Source: a virus (lineage: Duplodnaviria > Heunggongvirae > Uroviricota > Caudoviricetes). From it: a stretch of 5,697 nt of DNA. The notes below the pieces were generated by a model, which was not told the DNA's origin, ran no database searches, and saw nothing but the letters and a program-made list of their open reading frames with translations. The stretch lies in IMG/VR virus record IMGVR_UViG_2579778952_000008; one strand, 5' to 3'. The stretch's first letter is position 1. Each line of letters starts with the position of its first letter. Of the stretch, positions 1 through 5,697 are shown piece after piece. A program made the translations under genes and the position numbers.

Positions 1-918
1 TTACGCCTTCTTTATATCCTCCATAATTCCAGAGTGGGACATATTTGGGACATTATCACCAAAAATGTCGTCTATTTTCCTCGCATGCTCTGTCAAATGA
101 TTAGGCGCAAGGTGAGCATACCTACGAACCATTTCTATGGACTCCCATCCGCCCATTTCCTGAAGCACTGATAATGGGACGCCTGACTGAATCAGCCAGC
201 TTGCCCAGGTGTGTCTGAGGTCATGGAAACGGAAATCTTCAATTCCTGCACGACGACAAGCTGATAGCCATGATGTCTTGCTGTCGATGCGCATCTTCCT
301 GACCGCAGGCGTTGATGTTCCATCTGCTCGCTTAGCCGCCTTGGTATGTACAAACACCCATTTGTGATGCTTGCCTATTTGATCACGCAACACTTTACAG
401 GCGGTATCGTTCAGCGCCACACCAATGGCGCGGTTTGATTTGCTCTCTTCTGGATTCACCCAGGCAACTCGTCGCTGCATGTCGATTTGTTGCCATTCCA
501 GATTTATGATGTTCGACTTTCTCAGACCAGTTGCCAGCGCAAACTTGACGACAGATTTCAGTGGTTCGGGGCACTCATCAATAAGGCGTTTTGCTTCCTC
601 CTTTTCCAGCCATCTGACTCGCTTGTTTCTGACCGCTGGTATCTTGATGACAGGCGCTTTTTCCAGCCACTTCCAGTCGCGTTCTGCAGCACGGAGAATG
701 GCCTTTATCATGGCAAGATGCTTTGCCTTTGTCTGAGTTGATACTGGCTTTGGTTCATAAACAGGCGGTTGCCGTGTTGTGAGGTAAGGAGATTTTGGCT
801 TGGTTGGATCTTTACGTGTTGCCTGTAGGCGGCCTGTTCGTATCCAGTTGGTGGCGGTTGGTCTGGATATCTTAAGAAACTGACAGGCCTCATCGAGTGT
901 GAGGCTGTATGATTCCAT
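1..918 (-). CDS. int: Phage tyrosine integrase (305 aa from ATG at 918; ORF track extends to a GTG at 948). Catalytic domain complete, N-terminal region atypical.
   Basis: Translation shows tyrosine-recombinase catalytic motifs: ATGLRKSN (box I Arg), [10 protein letters not shown] (H-x-x-R), [15 protein letters not shown] (catalytic Tyr). Strong SD GAGGT 5 nt upstream of the ATG at 918 (sequence GAGGTAACCATGG on minus strand). N-terminal 35 aa ([26 protein letters not shown]) resemble an Xis/AlpA-type HTH. The C-terminal two-thirds resemble the P22/DLP12 IntD family as I recall it. Stop codon is at bases 1-3. Confidence 0.85.
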
Positions 919-1168
919 GGTTACCTCTGCTTTTTGAACGCATGTCACGTAACTTCTTAATGTGTTCTGCCGTTTCGATCTCTTCTGCTATCCGATCTGC
1001 ATCAGCTTTATTCACAGGTTCAAAGTCATGATTAAAGCGGAACATGCTGGCGATACATGTTCTGCCTTTTCGGATGTAGTGAACTTTGTTGTGGGTAGAA
1101 CGCAGGATTTTGCAGGGAGTGCCGTGGTGGTCGACGTACCAGGTGTTAGGAAAAATGATTCTGAACAT
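890..1168 (-). CDS. 92-aa small basic protein overlapping the int start by 29 nt; possible excisionase-position gene or integrase arm-binding-like domain (function unresolved).
   Basis: ATG at 1168 preceded by strong SD (GAGGTG, 5-nt spacer). Motif IFPNTWY near the N-terminus resembles the PPNLY motif of the lambda Int arm-binding domain. The 29-nt overlap with the int start mimics the xis/int overlap in lambda. Confidence 0.5.
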
Positions 1169-1215
1169 TTTTACACCTCAGTTGGACGATGTTGAAATTT
1201 GCTGCTTTGAGGCCA

Positions 1216-1434
1216 TCACAGTCCCCATTGTTTGTTCTTAAGTTCGATCTCCTCCTGGCAACTCGCACAAGTTCGACAACCCTGAACAGCCAGGCGTCTT
1301 CGCTCATCTATCGGATCGCCACACTCACAACAATGAGTTGCGGATACAGTCTGGTAGTTCAGACGACGCATTTTTATTGCTGTATTGCGCTGTAATTCTT
1401 CGATTTCTGATGCTGAATCAATGATGTCTGCCAT
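1216..1434 (-). CDS. TraR/DksA-family C4 zinc-finger protein (72 aa)
   Basis: CxxC-x14-CxxC motif (C35/C38 ... C53/C56) in a 72-aa protein, size and motif spacing like F-plasmid TraR and phage DksA-like proteins. Weak SD (AGGGA) upstream. Confidence 0.7.
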   Translation of the reverse strand: MADIIDSASEIEELQRNTAIKMRRLNYQTVSATHCCECGDPIDERRRLAVQGCRTCASCQEEIELKNKQWGL

Positions 1435-1487
1435 CTTTCATTAATCCCTGAATTGTTGGTTAATACGCTTGAGGGTAAATGCGAATA

Positions 1488-1510
1488 ATAAAAAAGGAGC
1501 CTGTAGCTCC
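1488..1510 (-). terminator. Putative rho-independent terminator for leftward transcription, downstream of the 93-aa ORF
   Basis: GGAGC (1496-1500) / 5-nt loop / GCTCC (1506-1510) hairpin. On the minus-strand RNA the stem is followed by UUUUUUAUUAUU (plus-strand A-run 1488-1495). Confidence 0.4.
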
Positions 1511-1532
1511 CTGATGATTTTGCTTTTCATGT

Positions 1533-1814
1533 TCACCGTTCCTTAAAGACGCCGTTCAACATGCCGATCGCCAGGCTTAAATGAGTCGGTGTGAATCCCA
1601 TCAGCGTTACCGTTTCGCGGTGCTTCTTTAGTACGCTACGGCAAATGTCATCGACGTTTTTATCCGGAAAATGCTGTCTGGCTTTTTTGATTTCAGAATT
1701 AGCCTGACGGGCAATGCTGCGAAGGGCGTTTTCTTGCTGAGGTGTCATTGAACAAGCCCCATGTCGGCAAGCATAAGCACACAGAATATGAAGCCCGCTG
1801 CCAGAAAAATGCAT
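1533..1814 (-). CDS. 93-aa hypothetical exo-xis-region protein with N-terminal Cys/His cluster; same length and relative position as lambda ea8.5 (identity unverified)
   Basis: ORF starts 10 nt after the orf63 stop (tight packing suggests coupling). N-terminal C12, C16, H18, C21 cluster, then a predicted helical 70-aa region. An alternative internal start (MTPQQ, ATG at 1746-1748) would give 71 aa. Confidence 0.5.
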   Translation of the reverse strand: MHFSGSGLHILCAYACRHGACSMTPQQENALRSIARQANSEIKKARQHFPDKNVDDICRSVLKKHRETVTLMGFTPTHLSLAIGMLNGVFKER

Positions 1815-1824
1815 TCAGTGGTTG

Positions 1825-2016
1825 TCATACCTGGTCTCTCTCATCTGCTTCTGCTTTCGCCACCATCATTTCCAGCTTTTGTGAAAGGGATGTGGCTAAC
1901 GTATGAAATTCTTCGTCTGTTTCTACTGGTATTGGCACAAACCTGACTCCAATTTGAGCAAGGCTATGTGCCATCTCAATACTCGTTCTTAACTCAACAG
2001 GAGATGCTTTGTGCAT
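1825..2016 (-). CDS. Lambda orf63 homolog (exo-xis region protein, 63 aa)
   Basis: Protein [23 protein letters not shown]... matches my recollection of lambda orf63 almost residue for residue. Same length, same 28-nt overlap with orf60a as in lambda. SD GGGAGG upstream. Confidence 0.8.
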   Translation of the reverse strand: MHKASPVELRTSIEMAHSLAQIGVRFVPIPVETDEEFHTLATSLSQKLEMMVAKAEADERDQV

Positions 2017-2171
2017 ACCGCCTCCCGTTTATTATTTATCTTCTCAGCCAGCCGCTGTGCTTTCAGGGGATTTCTGATAACAGAAAGGCCGGGAAATACC
2101 CAGCCTCGCTTTGTAACGGAGTAGACGAAAGTGATCGCGCCTACCCGGATATTATCGTGAGGATGCGTCAT
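1989..2171 (-). CDS. Lambda orf60a homolog (60 aa from second in-frame ATG; ORF track gives 62 aa from 2177)
   Basis: Protein [24 protein letters not shown]... matches recalled lambda orf60a. The ATG at 2169-2171 overlaps the exo stop codon (ATGA), as in lambda. Confidence 0.8.
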
Positions 2172-2848
2172 CGCCATTGCTCCCCAAATACAAAACCAAT
2201 TTCAGCCAGTGCCTCGTCCATTTTTTCGATGAACTCCGGCACCATCTCGTCAAAACTCGCCATGTACTTTTCATTCCGCTCAATCACGACATAATGCAGG
2301 CCTTCACGCTTCATGCGCGGGTCATAGTTGGCAAAGTACCAGGCATCTTTTCGCGTCACCCACATGCTGTACTGCACCTGGGCCATGTAAGCCGATTTTA
2401 TTGCCTCGAAACCACCGAGCCGGAATTTCATGAAATCCCGGGAGGTAAACGGGCATTTCAGTTCAAGGCCGTTGCCGTCACTGCATAAACCATCGGGAGA
2501 GCAGGCGGTGCGCATACTTTCGTCGCGATAGATGATCGGGGATTCAGTAATATTCACGCCGGAAGTGAATTCAAACAGGGTTCTGGCGTCGTTCTCGTAC
2601 TGTTTTCCCCAGGCCAGCGCCTTAGCATTAACTTCCGGAGCCACACCGGTGCAAACCTCAGCCAGCAGGGTGTGGAAGTAGGACATTTTCATGTCAGGCC
2701 ACTTCTTTCCTGAGCGGGGCTTTGCTATCACGTTGTGAACTTCTGAAGCGGTGATGACGCCGAGCCGTAATTTGTGCCATGCATCATCCCCCTGTTCGAC
2801 AGCTCTCACGTCGATCCCGGTACGCTGCAGGATAATGTCCGGTATCAT
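2168..2848 (-). CDS. exo: Lambda-type exonuclease (Red-alpha, Exo), apparently intact, 226 aa
   Basis: 226-aa translation is near-identical to lambda Exo as I recall it ([45 protein letters not shown]...GFVFGEQWR). SD AAGGTGG upstream. ATGA overlap with the upstream bet stop. Confidence 0.95.
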
Positions 2849-3039
2849 GCTGCCACCTTCTGCTCAGTGGCTTTCTGTTTCAGGAATCCAAGAGCTTTCA
2901 CTGCTTCGGCCTGTGTCAGTTCTGACGATGCGCGAATGTCGCGGCGAAATATCTGGGAACAGAGCGGCAATAAGTCGTCATCCCATGTTTTATCCAGGGC
3001 GATCAGCAGAGTGTTAATCTCCTGCATGGTTTCATCGTT
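2845..3039 (-). pseudogene. bet: bet (Red-beta) 3' fragment encoding only the C-terminal ~64 aa; 5' part deleted
   Basis: Minus-strand translation ...[64 protein letters not shown] matches the lambda Beta C-terminus. Upstream of residue N (base 3039) the ORF has no Bet similarity and is antisense to P. Confidence 0.85.
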
Positions 3040-3040
3040 A

Positions 3041-3643
3041 CAGCAGGTAGCGCAGATCATCAATGGTGTGTTCAGCCAGTTACTGGCAACTTTCCCGGCG
3101 AGCCTGGCTAACCGTGACCAGAATGAACTGAACGAAATCCGCCGCCAGTGGGTTCTGGCTTTCCGGGAAAACGGGATCACCACAATGGAACAGGTTAACG
3201 CTGGAATGCGCGTAGCCCGTCGGCAGAATCGACCATTTCTGCCATCACCCGGGCAGTTTGTTGCATGGTGCCGGGAAGAAGCATCCGTTATCGCCGGACT
3301 GCCAAACGTCAGCGAGCTGGTTGATATGGTTTACGAGTATTGCCGGAAGCGAGGCCTGTATCCGGATGCGGAGTCTTATCCGTGGAAATCAAACGCGCAC
3401 TACTGGCTGGTTACCAACCTGTATCAGAACATGCGGGCCAATGCGCTTACTGATGCGGAATTACGCCGTAAGGCCGCAGATGAGCTTGTCCATATGACTG
3501 CGAGAATTAACCGTGGTGAGGCGATCCCTGAACCAGTAAAACAACTTCCTGTTATGGGCGGTAGACCTCTAAATCGTGCACAGGCTCTGGCGAAGATCGC
3601 AGAAATTAAAGCTAAGTTCGGACTGAAAGGAGCAAGTGTATGA
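3041..3643 (+). pseudogene. P: Replication protein P, 5'-truncated (roughly residues 33-233 of lambda P retained); peaD-like
   Basis: Plus-strand translation from QQVAQIINGVFSQLLATFPASLANRDQNE... to ...AKIAEIKAKFGLKGASV matches lambda P C-terminal ~200 aa. No native start; the frame upstream of 3041 is antisense to bet/exo. ATGA overlap with ren at 3640-3643, as in lambda. Confidence 0.85.
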
Positions 3644-3942
3644 CGGGCAAAGAGGCAATTATTCATTACCTGGGGACGCATAAGAGCTTCTGTGCACAGG
3701 ACGTTGCCGCGGTAACAGGCGCAACCGTAACCAGCATAAATCAGGCTGCGGCTAAAATGGCGCGGGCAGGAATCCTGGTCGTTGATGGTAAGGTCTGGCG
3801 AACGGTGTATTACCGGTTCGCTACCAGAGAAGAACGGGAAGGAAAGGTGAGCACGAATCTGATTTTTAAGGAGTGTCGCCAGAGTGCCGCGATGAAACGC
3901 GTATTGAGGGTATATAAAAGAACATCAATGGGTACACAATGA
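3640..3942 (+). CDS. ren: Ren-like protein (100 aa) with divergent C-terminal ~10 aa; likely renD-type remnant
   Basis: MTGKEAIIHYLGTH...VWRTVYYRFATREEREGK...KECRQSAAMKRVL matches lambda Ren through about residue 90, then diverges (RVYKRTSMGTQ). The divergence point coincides with a shift to AT-rich DNA. Confidence 0.75.
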   Translation: MTGKEAIIHYLGTHKSFCAQDVAAVTGATVTSINQAAAKMARAGILVVDGKVWRTVYYRFATREEREGKVSTNLIFKECRQSAAMKRVLRVYKRTSMGTQ

Positions 3943-4009
3943 TGAAACAGGTGAGTTGATTTCAAACTGTAGTACAATTCTCTCCAGTTTGAACAGGAAA
4001 GAATATGCT

Positions 4010-4342
4010 ATGAACCCTTATATTTATCTTGGTGGTGCAATACTTGCAGAGGTCATTGGTACAACCTTAATGAAGTTTTCAGAAGGTTTTACACGGTTAT
4101 GGCCATCTGTTGGTACAATTATTTGTTATTGTGCATCATTCTGGTTATTAGCTCAGACGCTGGCTTATATTCCTACAGGGATTGCTTATGCTATCTGGTC
4201 AGGAGTCGGTATTGTCCTGATTAGCTTACTGTCATGGGGATTTTTCGGCCAACGGCTGGACCTGCCAGCCATTATAGGCATGATGTTGATTTGTGCCGGT
4301 GTGTTGGTTATTAATTTATTGTCACGAAGCACACCACATTAA
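4010..4342 (+). CDS. emrE: EmrE small multidrug resistance (SMR) efflux transporter, 110 aa
   Basis: Translation MNPYIYLGGAILAEVIGTTLMKFSEGFTRLWPSVGTIICYCASFWLLAQTLAYIPTGIAYAIWSGVGIVLISLLSWGFFGQRLDLPAIIGMMLICAGVL.INLLSRSTPH matches E. coli EmrE including the essential Glu14. SD AGGA about 11 nt upstream. The ORF-track N-terminal extension (from 3956) is not supported. Confidence 0.95.
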   Translation: MNPYIYLGGAILAEVIGTTLMKFSEGFTRLWPSVGTIICYCASFWLLAQTLAYIPTGIAYAIWSGVGIVLISLLSWGFFGQRLDLPAIIGMMLICAGVLVINLLSRSTPH

Positions 4343-4373
4343 AAATAATTTGTTTCTAAACGACTAAAATATG

Positions 4374-4412
4374 GAGGCTCTTATATTTATATGAGCCTCG
4401 TTTTATGCTTTT
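4374..4412 (+). terminator. Putative rho-independent terminator downstream of emrE
   Basis: GAGGCTC (4374-4380) / 12-nt loop / GAGCCTC (4393-4399) perfect 7-bp inverted repeat, followed by GTTTTATGCTTTTTG. Confidence 0.5.
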
Positions 4413-4598
4413 TGTTAATGTCTTTATTTTTTTATGTATTCTTTTGTGCTTTCAAGATTATGGCGTAAGAAAATTGCAATACGATTATTGTTGTATATTC
4501 AAGATAATGTGACCTTAATTGTCTTTTTAAATAAAAATTAAACAAAAATTATATCTCACCACTAAGGTTTATAGAAGCATACGTTAGCAGGTGTCACC

Positions 4599-4944
4599 AT
4601 GAAAAAAGCCATAGCATATATGCGATTTTCATCACCAGGTCAGATGTCTGGCGACTCATTAAACCGACAGAGAAGACTTATTGCTGAATGGTTAAAGGTA
4701 AATAGTGATTATTATCTTGATACCATAACATATGAAGATTTAGGATTAAGTGCATTCAAAGGAAAGCATGCACAATCAGGAGCTTTTTCGGAATTTTTAG
4801 ATGCTATAGAGCATGGTTATATATTGCCAGGAACTACATTGTTAGTTGAAAGTCTGGACAGACTTTCAAGAGAAAAAGTCGGTGAAGCGATTGAGCGTCT
4901 GAAATTGATTTTGAATCACGGTATTGATGTTATAACTCTTTGCG
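4599..4944 (+). pseudogene. ybcK: Serine recombinase (resolvase/invertase-type N-terminal catalytic domain; ybcK-like), truncated after ~115 codons by IS1 insertion
   Basis: MKKAIAYMRFSSPGQ...LLVESLDRLSR is a serine-recombinase catalytic-domain signature. The reading frame runs into the IS1 left end and stops 2 codons later (..VITLCG*). Matches my recollection of the K-12 DLP12 YbcK N-terminus. Confidence 0.8.
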
Positions 4945-4967
4945 GGTGATGCTGCCAACTTACTGAT
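4945..4967 (+). repeat. IS1 left terminal inverted repeat (IRL)
   Basis: GGTGATGCTGCCAACTTACTGAT, the canonical IS1 terminus. Confidence 0.8.
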
Positions 4968-4999
4968 TTAGTGTATGATGGTGTTTTTGAGGTGCTCCA

Positions 5000-5275
5000 G
5001 TGGCTTCTGTTTCTATCAGCTGTCCCTCCTGTTCAGCTACTGACGGGGTGGTGCGTAACGGCAAAAGCACCGCCGGACATCAGCGCTATCTCTGCTCTCA
5101 CTGCCGTAAAACATGGCAACTGCAGTTCACTTACACCGCTTCTCAACCCGGTACGCACCAGAAAATCATTGATATGGCCATGAATGGCGTTGGATGCCGG
5201 GCAACCGCCCGCATTATGGGCGTTGGCCTCAACACGATTTTCCGCCATTTAAAAAACTCAGGCCGCAGTCGGTAA
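5000..5275 (+). CDS. insA: IS1 InsA (transposition inhibitor / N-terminal part of transposase), 91 aa, GTG start
   Basis: Translation [40 protein letters not shown]... matches IS1 InsA. Confidence 0.95.
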
Positions 5276-5697
5276 CCTCGCGCATACAGCCGGGCAGTGA
5301 CGTCATCGTCTGCGCGGAAATGGACGAACAGTGGGGATACGTCGGGGCTAAATCGCGCCAGCGCTGGCTGTTTTACGCGTATGACAGGCTCCGGAAGACG
5401 GTTGTTGCGCACGTATTCGGTGAACGCACTATGGCGACGCTGGGGCGTCTTATGAGCCTGCTGTCACCCTTTGACGTGGTGATATGGATGACGGATGGCT
5501 GGCCGCTGTATGAATCCCGCCTGAAGGGAAAGCTGCACGTAATCAGCAAGCGATATACGCAGCGAATTGAGCGGCATAACCTGAATCTGAGGCAGCACCT
5601 GGCACGGCTGGGACGGAAGTCGCTGTCGTTCTCAAAATCGGTGGAGCTGCATGACAAAGTCATCGGGCATTATCTGAACATAAAACACTATCAATAA
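5194..5697 (+). CDS. insB: IS1 InsB reading frame (expressed as InsAB' transposase via -1 frameshift)
   Basis: Translation ...[36 protein letters not shown]...HYLNIKHYQ matches IS1 InsB. The frame is -1 relative to insA. Confidence 0.9.
5251..5257 (+). promoter_or_regulatory. IS1 programmed -1 ribosomal frameshift site (A6C slippery motif) in the insA/insB overlap
   Basis: AAAAAAC at 5251-5257 inside the insA-insB overlap; a known IS1 mechanism. Confidence 0.8.

Follow-up and report, generated by a model that had tools for sequence, protein, structure and literature searches.

The window, a 5,697-nt stretch of DNA from the virus record IMGVR_UViG_2579778952_000008, begins with an integrase-like open reading frame (ORF) on the minus strand, upstream of which lie further small genes (Table 1). 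The mechanical ORF covers positions 1..948 (-) and codes for 315 aa from a GTG at 948 or for 305 aa from the ATG at 918, ten codons downstream of the GTG; its stop codon occupies window positions 3..1. A GAGGT Shine–Dalgarno sequence lies 5 nt upstream of the ATG at 918, and an in-frame TAG is found upstream of the ORF at 990..988. A Pfam search assigned residues 16-45 of the 315-aa form to HTH_17, a helix-turn-helix (HTH) family of the Xis/AlpA type (E 7.2e-8), and residues 112-283 to the Phage_integrase catalytic domain PF00589 (E 1.1e-46, profile positions 1-171 of 172); the approximately 65 residues between the two domains gave no Pfam match. The active-site residues R133, H232, R235, W258 and Y267 (305-aa numbering) are all present, as are the motifs ATGLR, HDLRH, GGW and RRYAH.

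Table 1. Features of the xis–int region and their positions in the window
Feature	Position	Strand	Remarks
xis'-'intD fusion ORF (pseudogene)	1..918	-	305 aa; Xis 1-50 + IntD 133-387
intD 3' remnant	1..768	-	Codons 133-387; last core-binding helix (predicted), linker, complete catalytic domain
xis 5' remnant	769..918	-	Native Shine–Dalgarno sequence, ATG, codons 1-50; winged-HTH part; HTH_17 match
Deletion junction	769/770		473 bp missing; L001 5733..6205, +/-2 nt (AA microhomology)
DUF4222 gene	890..1168	-	92 aa, WP_000488407.1; independent gene; PF13973 match
TraR/DksA-family zinc-finger gene	1216..1434	-	Follows upstream in the early-left operon of the prophage

A sequence-only reading of this DNA had described an in-frame TAG near 988-990, a strong Shine–Dalgarno sequence and an Xis/AlpA-like HTH at the start of int, the HTH running almost directly into the catalytic domain, and an overlapping 92-aa ORF (1168..890) with a strong Shine–Dalgarno sequence of its own, and all of these are borne out here. 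Three explanations were offered with no choice made among them: a frameshifted integrase pseudogene, an in-frame xis–int fusion left by an internal deletion, and a genuine split architecture. Our analysis sustains the second and speaks decisively against the other two.

The product of the 92-aa ORF matches PF13973 (DUF4222) over the entire profile in Pfam (positions 1-53 of 53, E 1.9e-19). The ORF has its own GAGGTG Shine–Dalgarno sequence and overlaps the start of xis (the ATG at 918) by 29 nt. The same ORF, unchanged and with an identical 29-nt overlap, is found upstream of intact xis–intD pairs, and at least 1000 contigs encode a protein identical to it. It is the stand-alone small gene that lies upstream of xis in lambdoid prophages. 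If the integrase were frameshifted, this ORF would represent its displaced arm-binding N-terminus, an idea suggested by the combined span of the two ORFs (1168 nt, near the 1164 nt of intD) and by a loose P-N-x-Y resemblance to the N-terminus of lambda Int, seen in the sequence IFPNTWY, which had been likened to the arm-binding motif of that protein. Both resemblances are coincidental: the best BLASTP alignment of the 92-aa ORF with IntD is not significant (E 0.10) and falls in the catalytic region, and in intact loci the corresponding stretch, measured from the first codon of DUF4222 to the end of int, extends over 1641 nt (5333..6973 in the reference genome L001, see below). The true N-terminus of IntD is absent from the window, and the DUF4222 gene also stands upstream of an intact xis and a 387-aa intD. 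The 92-aa ORF was rejected as an integrase N-terminus on the strength of its Pfam match and of the BLASTP result, and we see virtually no chance that the locus is a frameshifted integrase.

Further upstream, a mechanical ORF of 93 aa at 1533-1814 (-) has no Pfam match; RefSeq has a 71-codon version of it (1533..1748), annotated as the hypothetical protein WP_000188859.1.

A 473-bp deletion between xis and intD

When window 1..1500 was searched by megablast in 5,426 complete E. coli genomes, many matches were 100% identical, each consisting of two pieces that together extended over 1,973 nt instead of 1,500. The window is 100% identical over this region to the intact loci of NZ_CP027449.1 and at least 29 other genomes, except for a gap of 473 bp, which is the sole difference between the fusion and the intact intD/xis loci. 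Compared base by base with NZ_CP027449.1 (L001), the query from window 1..1500 begins with an exact match of 732 nt and finishes with one of 770 nt, the two overlapping by 2 nt (AA). The gap is present in eight closed genomes, which makes an assembly artefact an unlikely source.

In L001, xis (5583..5954, 123 aa) and intD (5810..6973, 387 aa) overlap by 145 nt. Codons 51-123 have been lost from xis and codons 1-132 from intD, and the reading frame is kept, codon 50 of xis being joined to codon 133 of intD. The identity of the two parts is exact: residues 1-50 of the fusion are those of the intact 123-aa Xis, preceded by the same Shine–Dalgarno sequence and beginning at the same start codon as in the intact E. 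coli xis allele, and residues 51-305 are IntD 133-387, encoded by a remnant with 100% nucleotide identity to intact intD.

The same layout and gene lengths are found in Salmonella phage epsilon34, whose excisionase (gp24) and integrase (gp23) each share about 80% identity with their E. coli counterparts. Residues 1-50 of Xis match gp24 (123 aa) at 48 of 50 positions, the HTH_17/winged-helix part being alike, whereas the C-terminal 73 residues of gp24 have no counterpart in the fusion, in which the frame runs on into int. In the best-matching phage records, the 305-aa query aligns as two pieces spanning 1388 nt. The integrase most closely related to the fusion is IntD of prophage DLP12 of E. 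coli K-12 (387 aa), a member of the P22/epsilon34 Int family of heterobivalent tyrosine recombinases. Over residues 133-387 the fusion has the sequence of IntD from strains in which the gene is intact; it differs in lacking residues 1-132 and in carrying an Xis fragment in place of the N-terminus. The sequence-only reading had proposed to align the locus with intact int and xis genes and to search both ORFs with profile HMMs; these comparisons yield the 473-bp deletion on the one hand and HTH_17, PF00589 and DUF4222 on the other.

For undeleted loci such as L001 (xis at 5583-5954), the PGAP annotation of xis stops after 22 codons and is labelled an incomplete pseudogene. This xis is nevertheless open for 123 aa and collinear with epsilon34 gp24, which suggests that intact xis is probably under-called by PGAP in undeleted strains.

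Despite looking like an unusual HTH-integrase, the fusion ORF is a chimeric pseudogene. RefSeq/PGAP calls both remnants incomplete pseudogenes in three junction-bearing genomes (E200086, AST85 and Z0117EC0005), and some records name the ORF ‘tyrosine-type recombinase/integrase’. We consider it very likely that window 1..918 is a deletion-derived xis–int pseudogene in a DLP12-type cryptic prophage.

With regard to domain content, the Pfam catalytic domain of intact IntD begins at residue 184, residues 1 to about 55 show a weak DUF6538 match, and no core-binding or arm-binding family was detected at threshold. A 95%-identical full-length homologue of IntD was modelled with AlphaFold2 from a shallow alignment of 20 sequences; the mean pLDDT was 48.6 and the model was used solely for the helical region 60-160, where pLDDT reaches 65-88. 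This region forms a bundle of helices at 59-70, 76-90, 100-111, 113-128 and 143-168, which appears to sit at about the position of the core-binding domain, with boundaries taken from a low-confidence model. A phmmer alignment to Pyrococcus XerA begins at IntD 154, corresponding to chain residue 70, in agreement with this placement; a sequence search of the PDB gave matches in catalytic domains and in the final portion of the core-binding domain only. According to the model, the deletion would have removed the first four helices of the bundle and spared the last one (143-168). The fusion thus lacks the arm-type DNA-binding domain and, as far as the model allows placing them, about four of the five core-binding helices because IntD residues 1-132 are deleted. 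It retains the complete catalytic domain and the N-terminal winged HTH of Xis, the C-terminal 73 aa of the latter (residues 51-123) being deleted. In a single-sequence model of the fusion, too poor to be relied on (pLDDT 43), the Xis winged HTH has a helix-helix-strand-strand topology.

Distribution and origin of the junction

The junction is rare. A 64-nt probe across it was contiguous in 8 of the 5,426 complete E. coli genomes and in none of 50,697 phage records; 12 phage records matched the probe in two pieces 537 nt apart and are thus undeleted. The undeleted segment with its 80-nt flanks is contiguous in 1,625 of the same 5,426 genomes. A 44-mer of the junction had no match in the GTDB species representatives, the allele falling below the species-representative resolution of that database. 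Among approximately 15 billion protein sequences, the exact 305-aa protein occurs on 40 contigs, all named records being E. coli, and it falls within a 90% cluster of partial integrases. A search of 5.8 billion protein clusters produced 7,183 homologues, and among the best 120 of these none exceeded 87% query coverage and none combined HTH_17 with PF00589.

Over 5 kb of the adjoining host DNA, three carriers of the junction (from Mali, South Korea and Japan) show 0-1 mismatches, compared with about 110 over the same 5 kb for the intact-int strain L001. This near-identity points to a single origin in one chromosomal lineage and argues for the junction having arisen once, in one E. coli chromosomal haplotype.

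The prophages of these three genomes are in different states of decay. In AST85 the early region is still in place, gam, bet, exo, the repressor gene, cro and P included, and an IS21 is present; E200086 has a bet'-P' deletion, as in the window; Z0117EC0005 has a larger deletion together with an IS3. As one junction is common to three different decay states, the xis–int deletion preceded these other lesions of the prophage. A common junction combined with three routes of decay therefore gives the relative order of decay events in the lineage.

This distribution bears on the possibility that the 305-aa HTH-plus-catalytic recombinase, with a separate small partner protein, is a native and conserved functional module, the arrangement that the sequence-only reading had named as the one that would overturn its suspicion of a damaged locus. 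The ORF is open and in frame, has a strong Shine–Dalgarno sequence and all catalytic residues, and is represented by an exact protein on 40 contigs. However, its flanks are 100% nucleotide-identical to the two-gene arrangement, which implies that no divergence has taken place since the deletion event, and only a single chromosomal haplotype of E. coli carries the allele. Its absence from all of the phage records searched, the small number of E. coli genomes that carry it and the lack of a comparably organized protein among the best homologues also run counter to a conserved module. No such native arrangement was found among these phage records or the best 120 homologues, and we regard a genuine split architecture as extremely improbable.

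Predicted consequences for the recombinase and for excision

In heterobivalent integrases such as lambda Int, the arm-binding and core-binding domains are needed for the intasome and for recognition of the core site. The isolated catalytic domain of lambda Int keeps weak DNA cleavage and topoisomerase activity; consequently, the fusion may not be inert.

The ancestral arrangement is of the P22/epsilon34 type, with a xis of 123 aa, the 3' end of which overlaps the beginning of intD (387 aa). One illegitimate deletion of 473 bp, at a microhomology of 2 bp, placed the remnants in frame by chance. Deprived of the arm-binding domain and of most of the core-binding domain, the fusion product would neither assemble an intasome nor recognize core sites, and a functional Xis would not be made; to act together with Int, an excisionase presumably needs other parts besides the HTH. 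The prophage would thus be unable to excise by its own means, and it has since decayed further in place, by the bet–P deletion and by an IS1 insertion in ybcK. Since the DNA-binding domains of the integrase are missing and the HTH of Xis alone would be insufficient, the element should no longer self-excise; this is a reasonable prediction from the gene content, and we infer that recombination activity has been lost. The element is in any case already a particle-defective cryptic prophage.

The protein itself could be made, given that the catalytic domain is untouched and that the Shine–Dalgarno sequence and start codon are good. In the strain of the window, however, its expression is doubtful, as the early region normally located upstream and holding the early-left promoter has been deleted by the bet–P lesion. 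It may be imagined that the deletion product has taken on a new role, for instance as a dominant-negative factor directed to its sites by the Xis HTH, which would occupy the Xis sites of the P arm and block excision or integration where a phage, co-resident or incoming, uses an integrase of the related IntD/P22 type. The winged HTH of Xis has apparently been retained entire (an HTH_17 match and a weak structural model) together with its native translation signals, and it is common for an E. coli genome to contain several related int copies (a median of two places per genome). There is no sign of selection, the allele being rare, of single origin and undiverged, and the loss of the early-left promoter region from the strain of the window weighs against expression there. 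The proposal is pure speculation and we hold a new role to be very unlikely. We judge it just as improbable that the chimera is expressed at all in such a capacity, be it as a dominant negative on the Xis sites in the att arms or as a catalytic domain retargeted by the domain of a recombination directionality factor (RDF).

The deletion-derived pseudogene can be compared with the inactivated integrases of other E. coli cryptic prophages, such as intQ of Qin, described as inactive (PMC3105296). In both cases, a decaying prophage is locked into its chromosomal site once the integration/excision module is lost; what sets the fusion apart is that it results from one deletion that joined the xis and int remnants in frame, leaving a deceptively intact ORF. 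With an intact IntD, DLP12 does excise in K-12, at a low frequency of less than 1 per 100,000 cells (PMC3105296), and this excision is inducible approximately 40-fold (PMC12607911).

The persistence of the 305-aa allele in one lineage is what would be expected of a neutral lesion. The fusion is an instance of ordinary prophage decay, a truncated allele of the well-known intD/xis pair that is already public and flagged as pseudogenic, and it matters little beyond annotation. It does illustrate that one small deletion can strip a prophage of both DNA-binding domains of its integrase and of its excisionase.

Prophage context and further decay

At its int side the window stops at the int stop codon, and the adjacent tRNA gene lies outside it. 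Positions 1..4944 are 100% identical to several junction-bearing genomes, in which a tRNA-Arg gene (argU) is located 16 nt past the int stop and is followed by fimZ. This is the chromosomal site of DLP12 in K-12, with which the element also shares the cargo genes emrE, ren, ybcK and ylcJ. Its full cargo comprises ren, emrE, ylcJ, ybcK, the nin region, quuD, lysis genes, appY and ompT. In AST85, where the element extends over emrE, ybcK, quuD through essD, rrrD to appY and ompT, the morphogenesis genes are represented by terminase and tail remnants only. The element is thus a DLP12-type cryptic lambdoid prophage beside argU of E. coli. In the window, as in DLP12 of K-12, the multidrug efflux gene emrE (4010-4342, +) has ren (3640..3942) on one side and a frameshifted ylcJ (about 4391..4541) on the other.

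A second deletion has its junction at 3039/3040, where the 3' end of bet (2845..3048, -) is joined to the 3' part of P (3038..3643, +) at a TA microhomology. In comparison with AST85, 6,641 bp are missing. The missing stretch comprises the 5' part of bet, gam, the S24-peptidase repressor, a transcriptional regulator at the position of cro, ydaT, a replication gene at the position of O (a pseudogene in AST85), the 5' end of P and the IS21 of AST85. The immunity and replication-initiation region has thereby been taken out.

The larger deletion of Z0117EC0005 (window 2144/2145 and 3039; L004 4658-4660) has its right endpoint in P within 1-2 nt of the bet'-P' junction (GGTA|CAGCAGG), and the deleted side at its left end starts with a similar TA[A/C]CCGG context. 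This coincidence of endpoints may reflect either a nested second deletion or a shared hotspot.

The end of the window is occupied by an IS1 (4945-5697), cut by the window end, which interrupts the recombinase gene ybcK after position 4944. In E200086, the closest complete genome, another variant of IS1, with 8 mismatches in 754 nt, is inserted 128 bp away in ybcK and accompanied by a 9-bp duplication of window 4808..4816. Two independent IS1 insertions have occurred in ybcK within one lineage.
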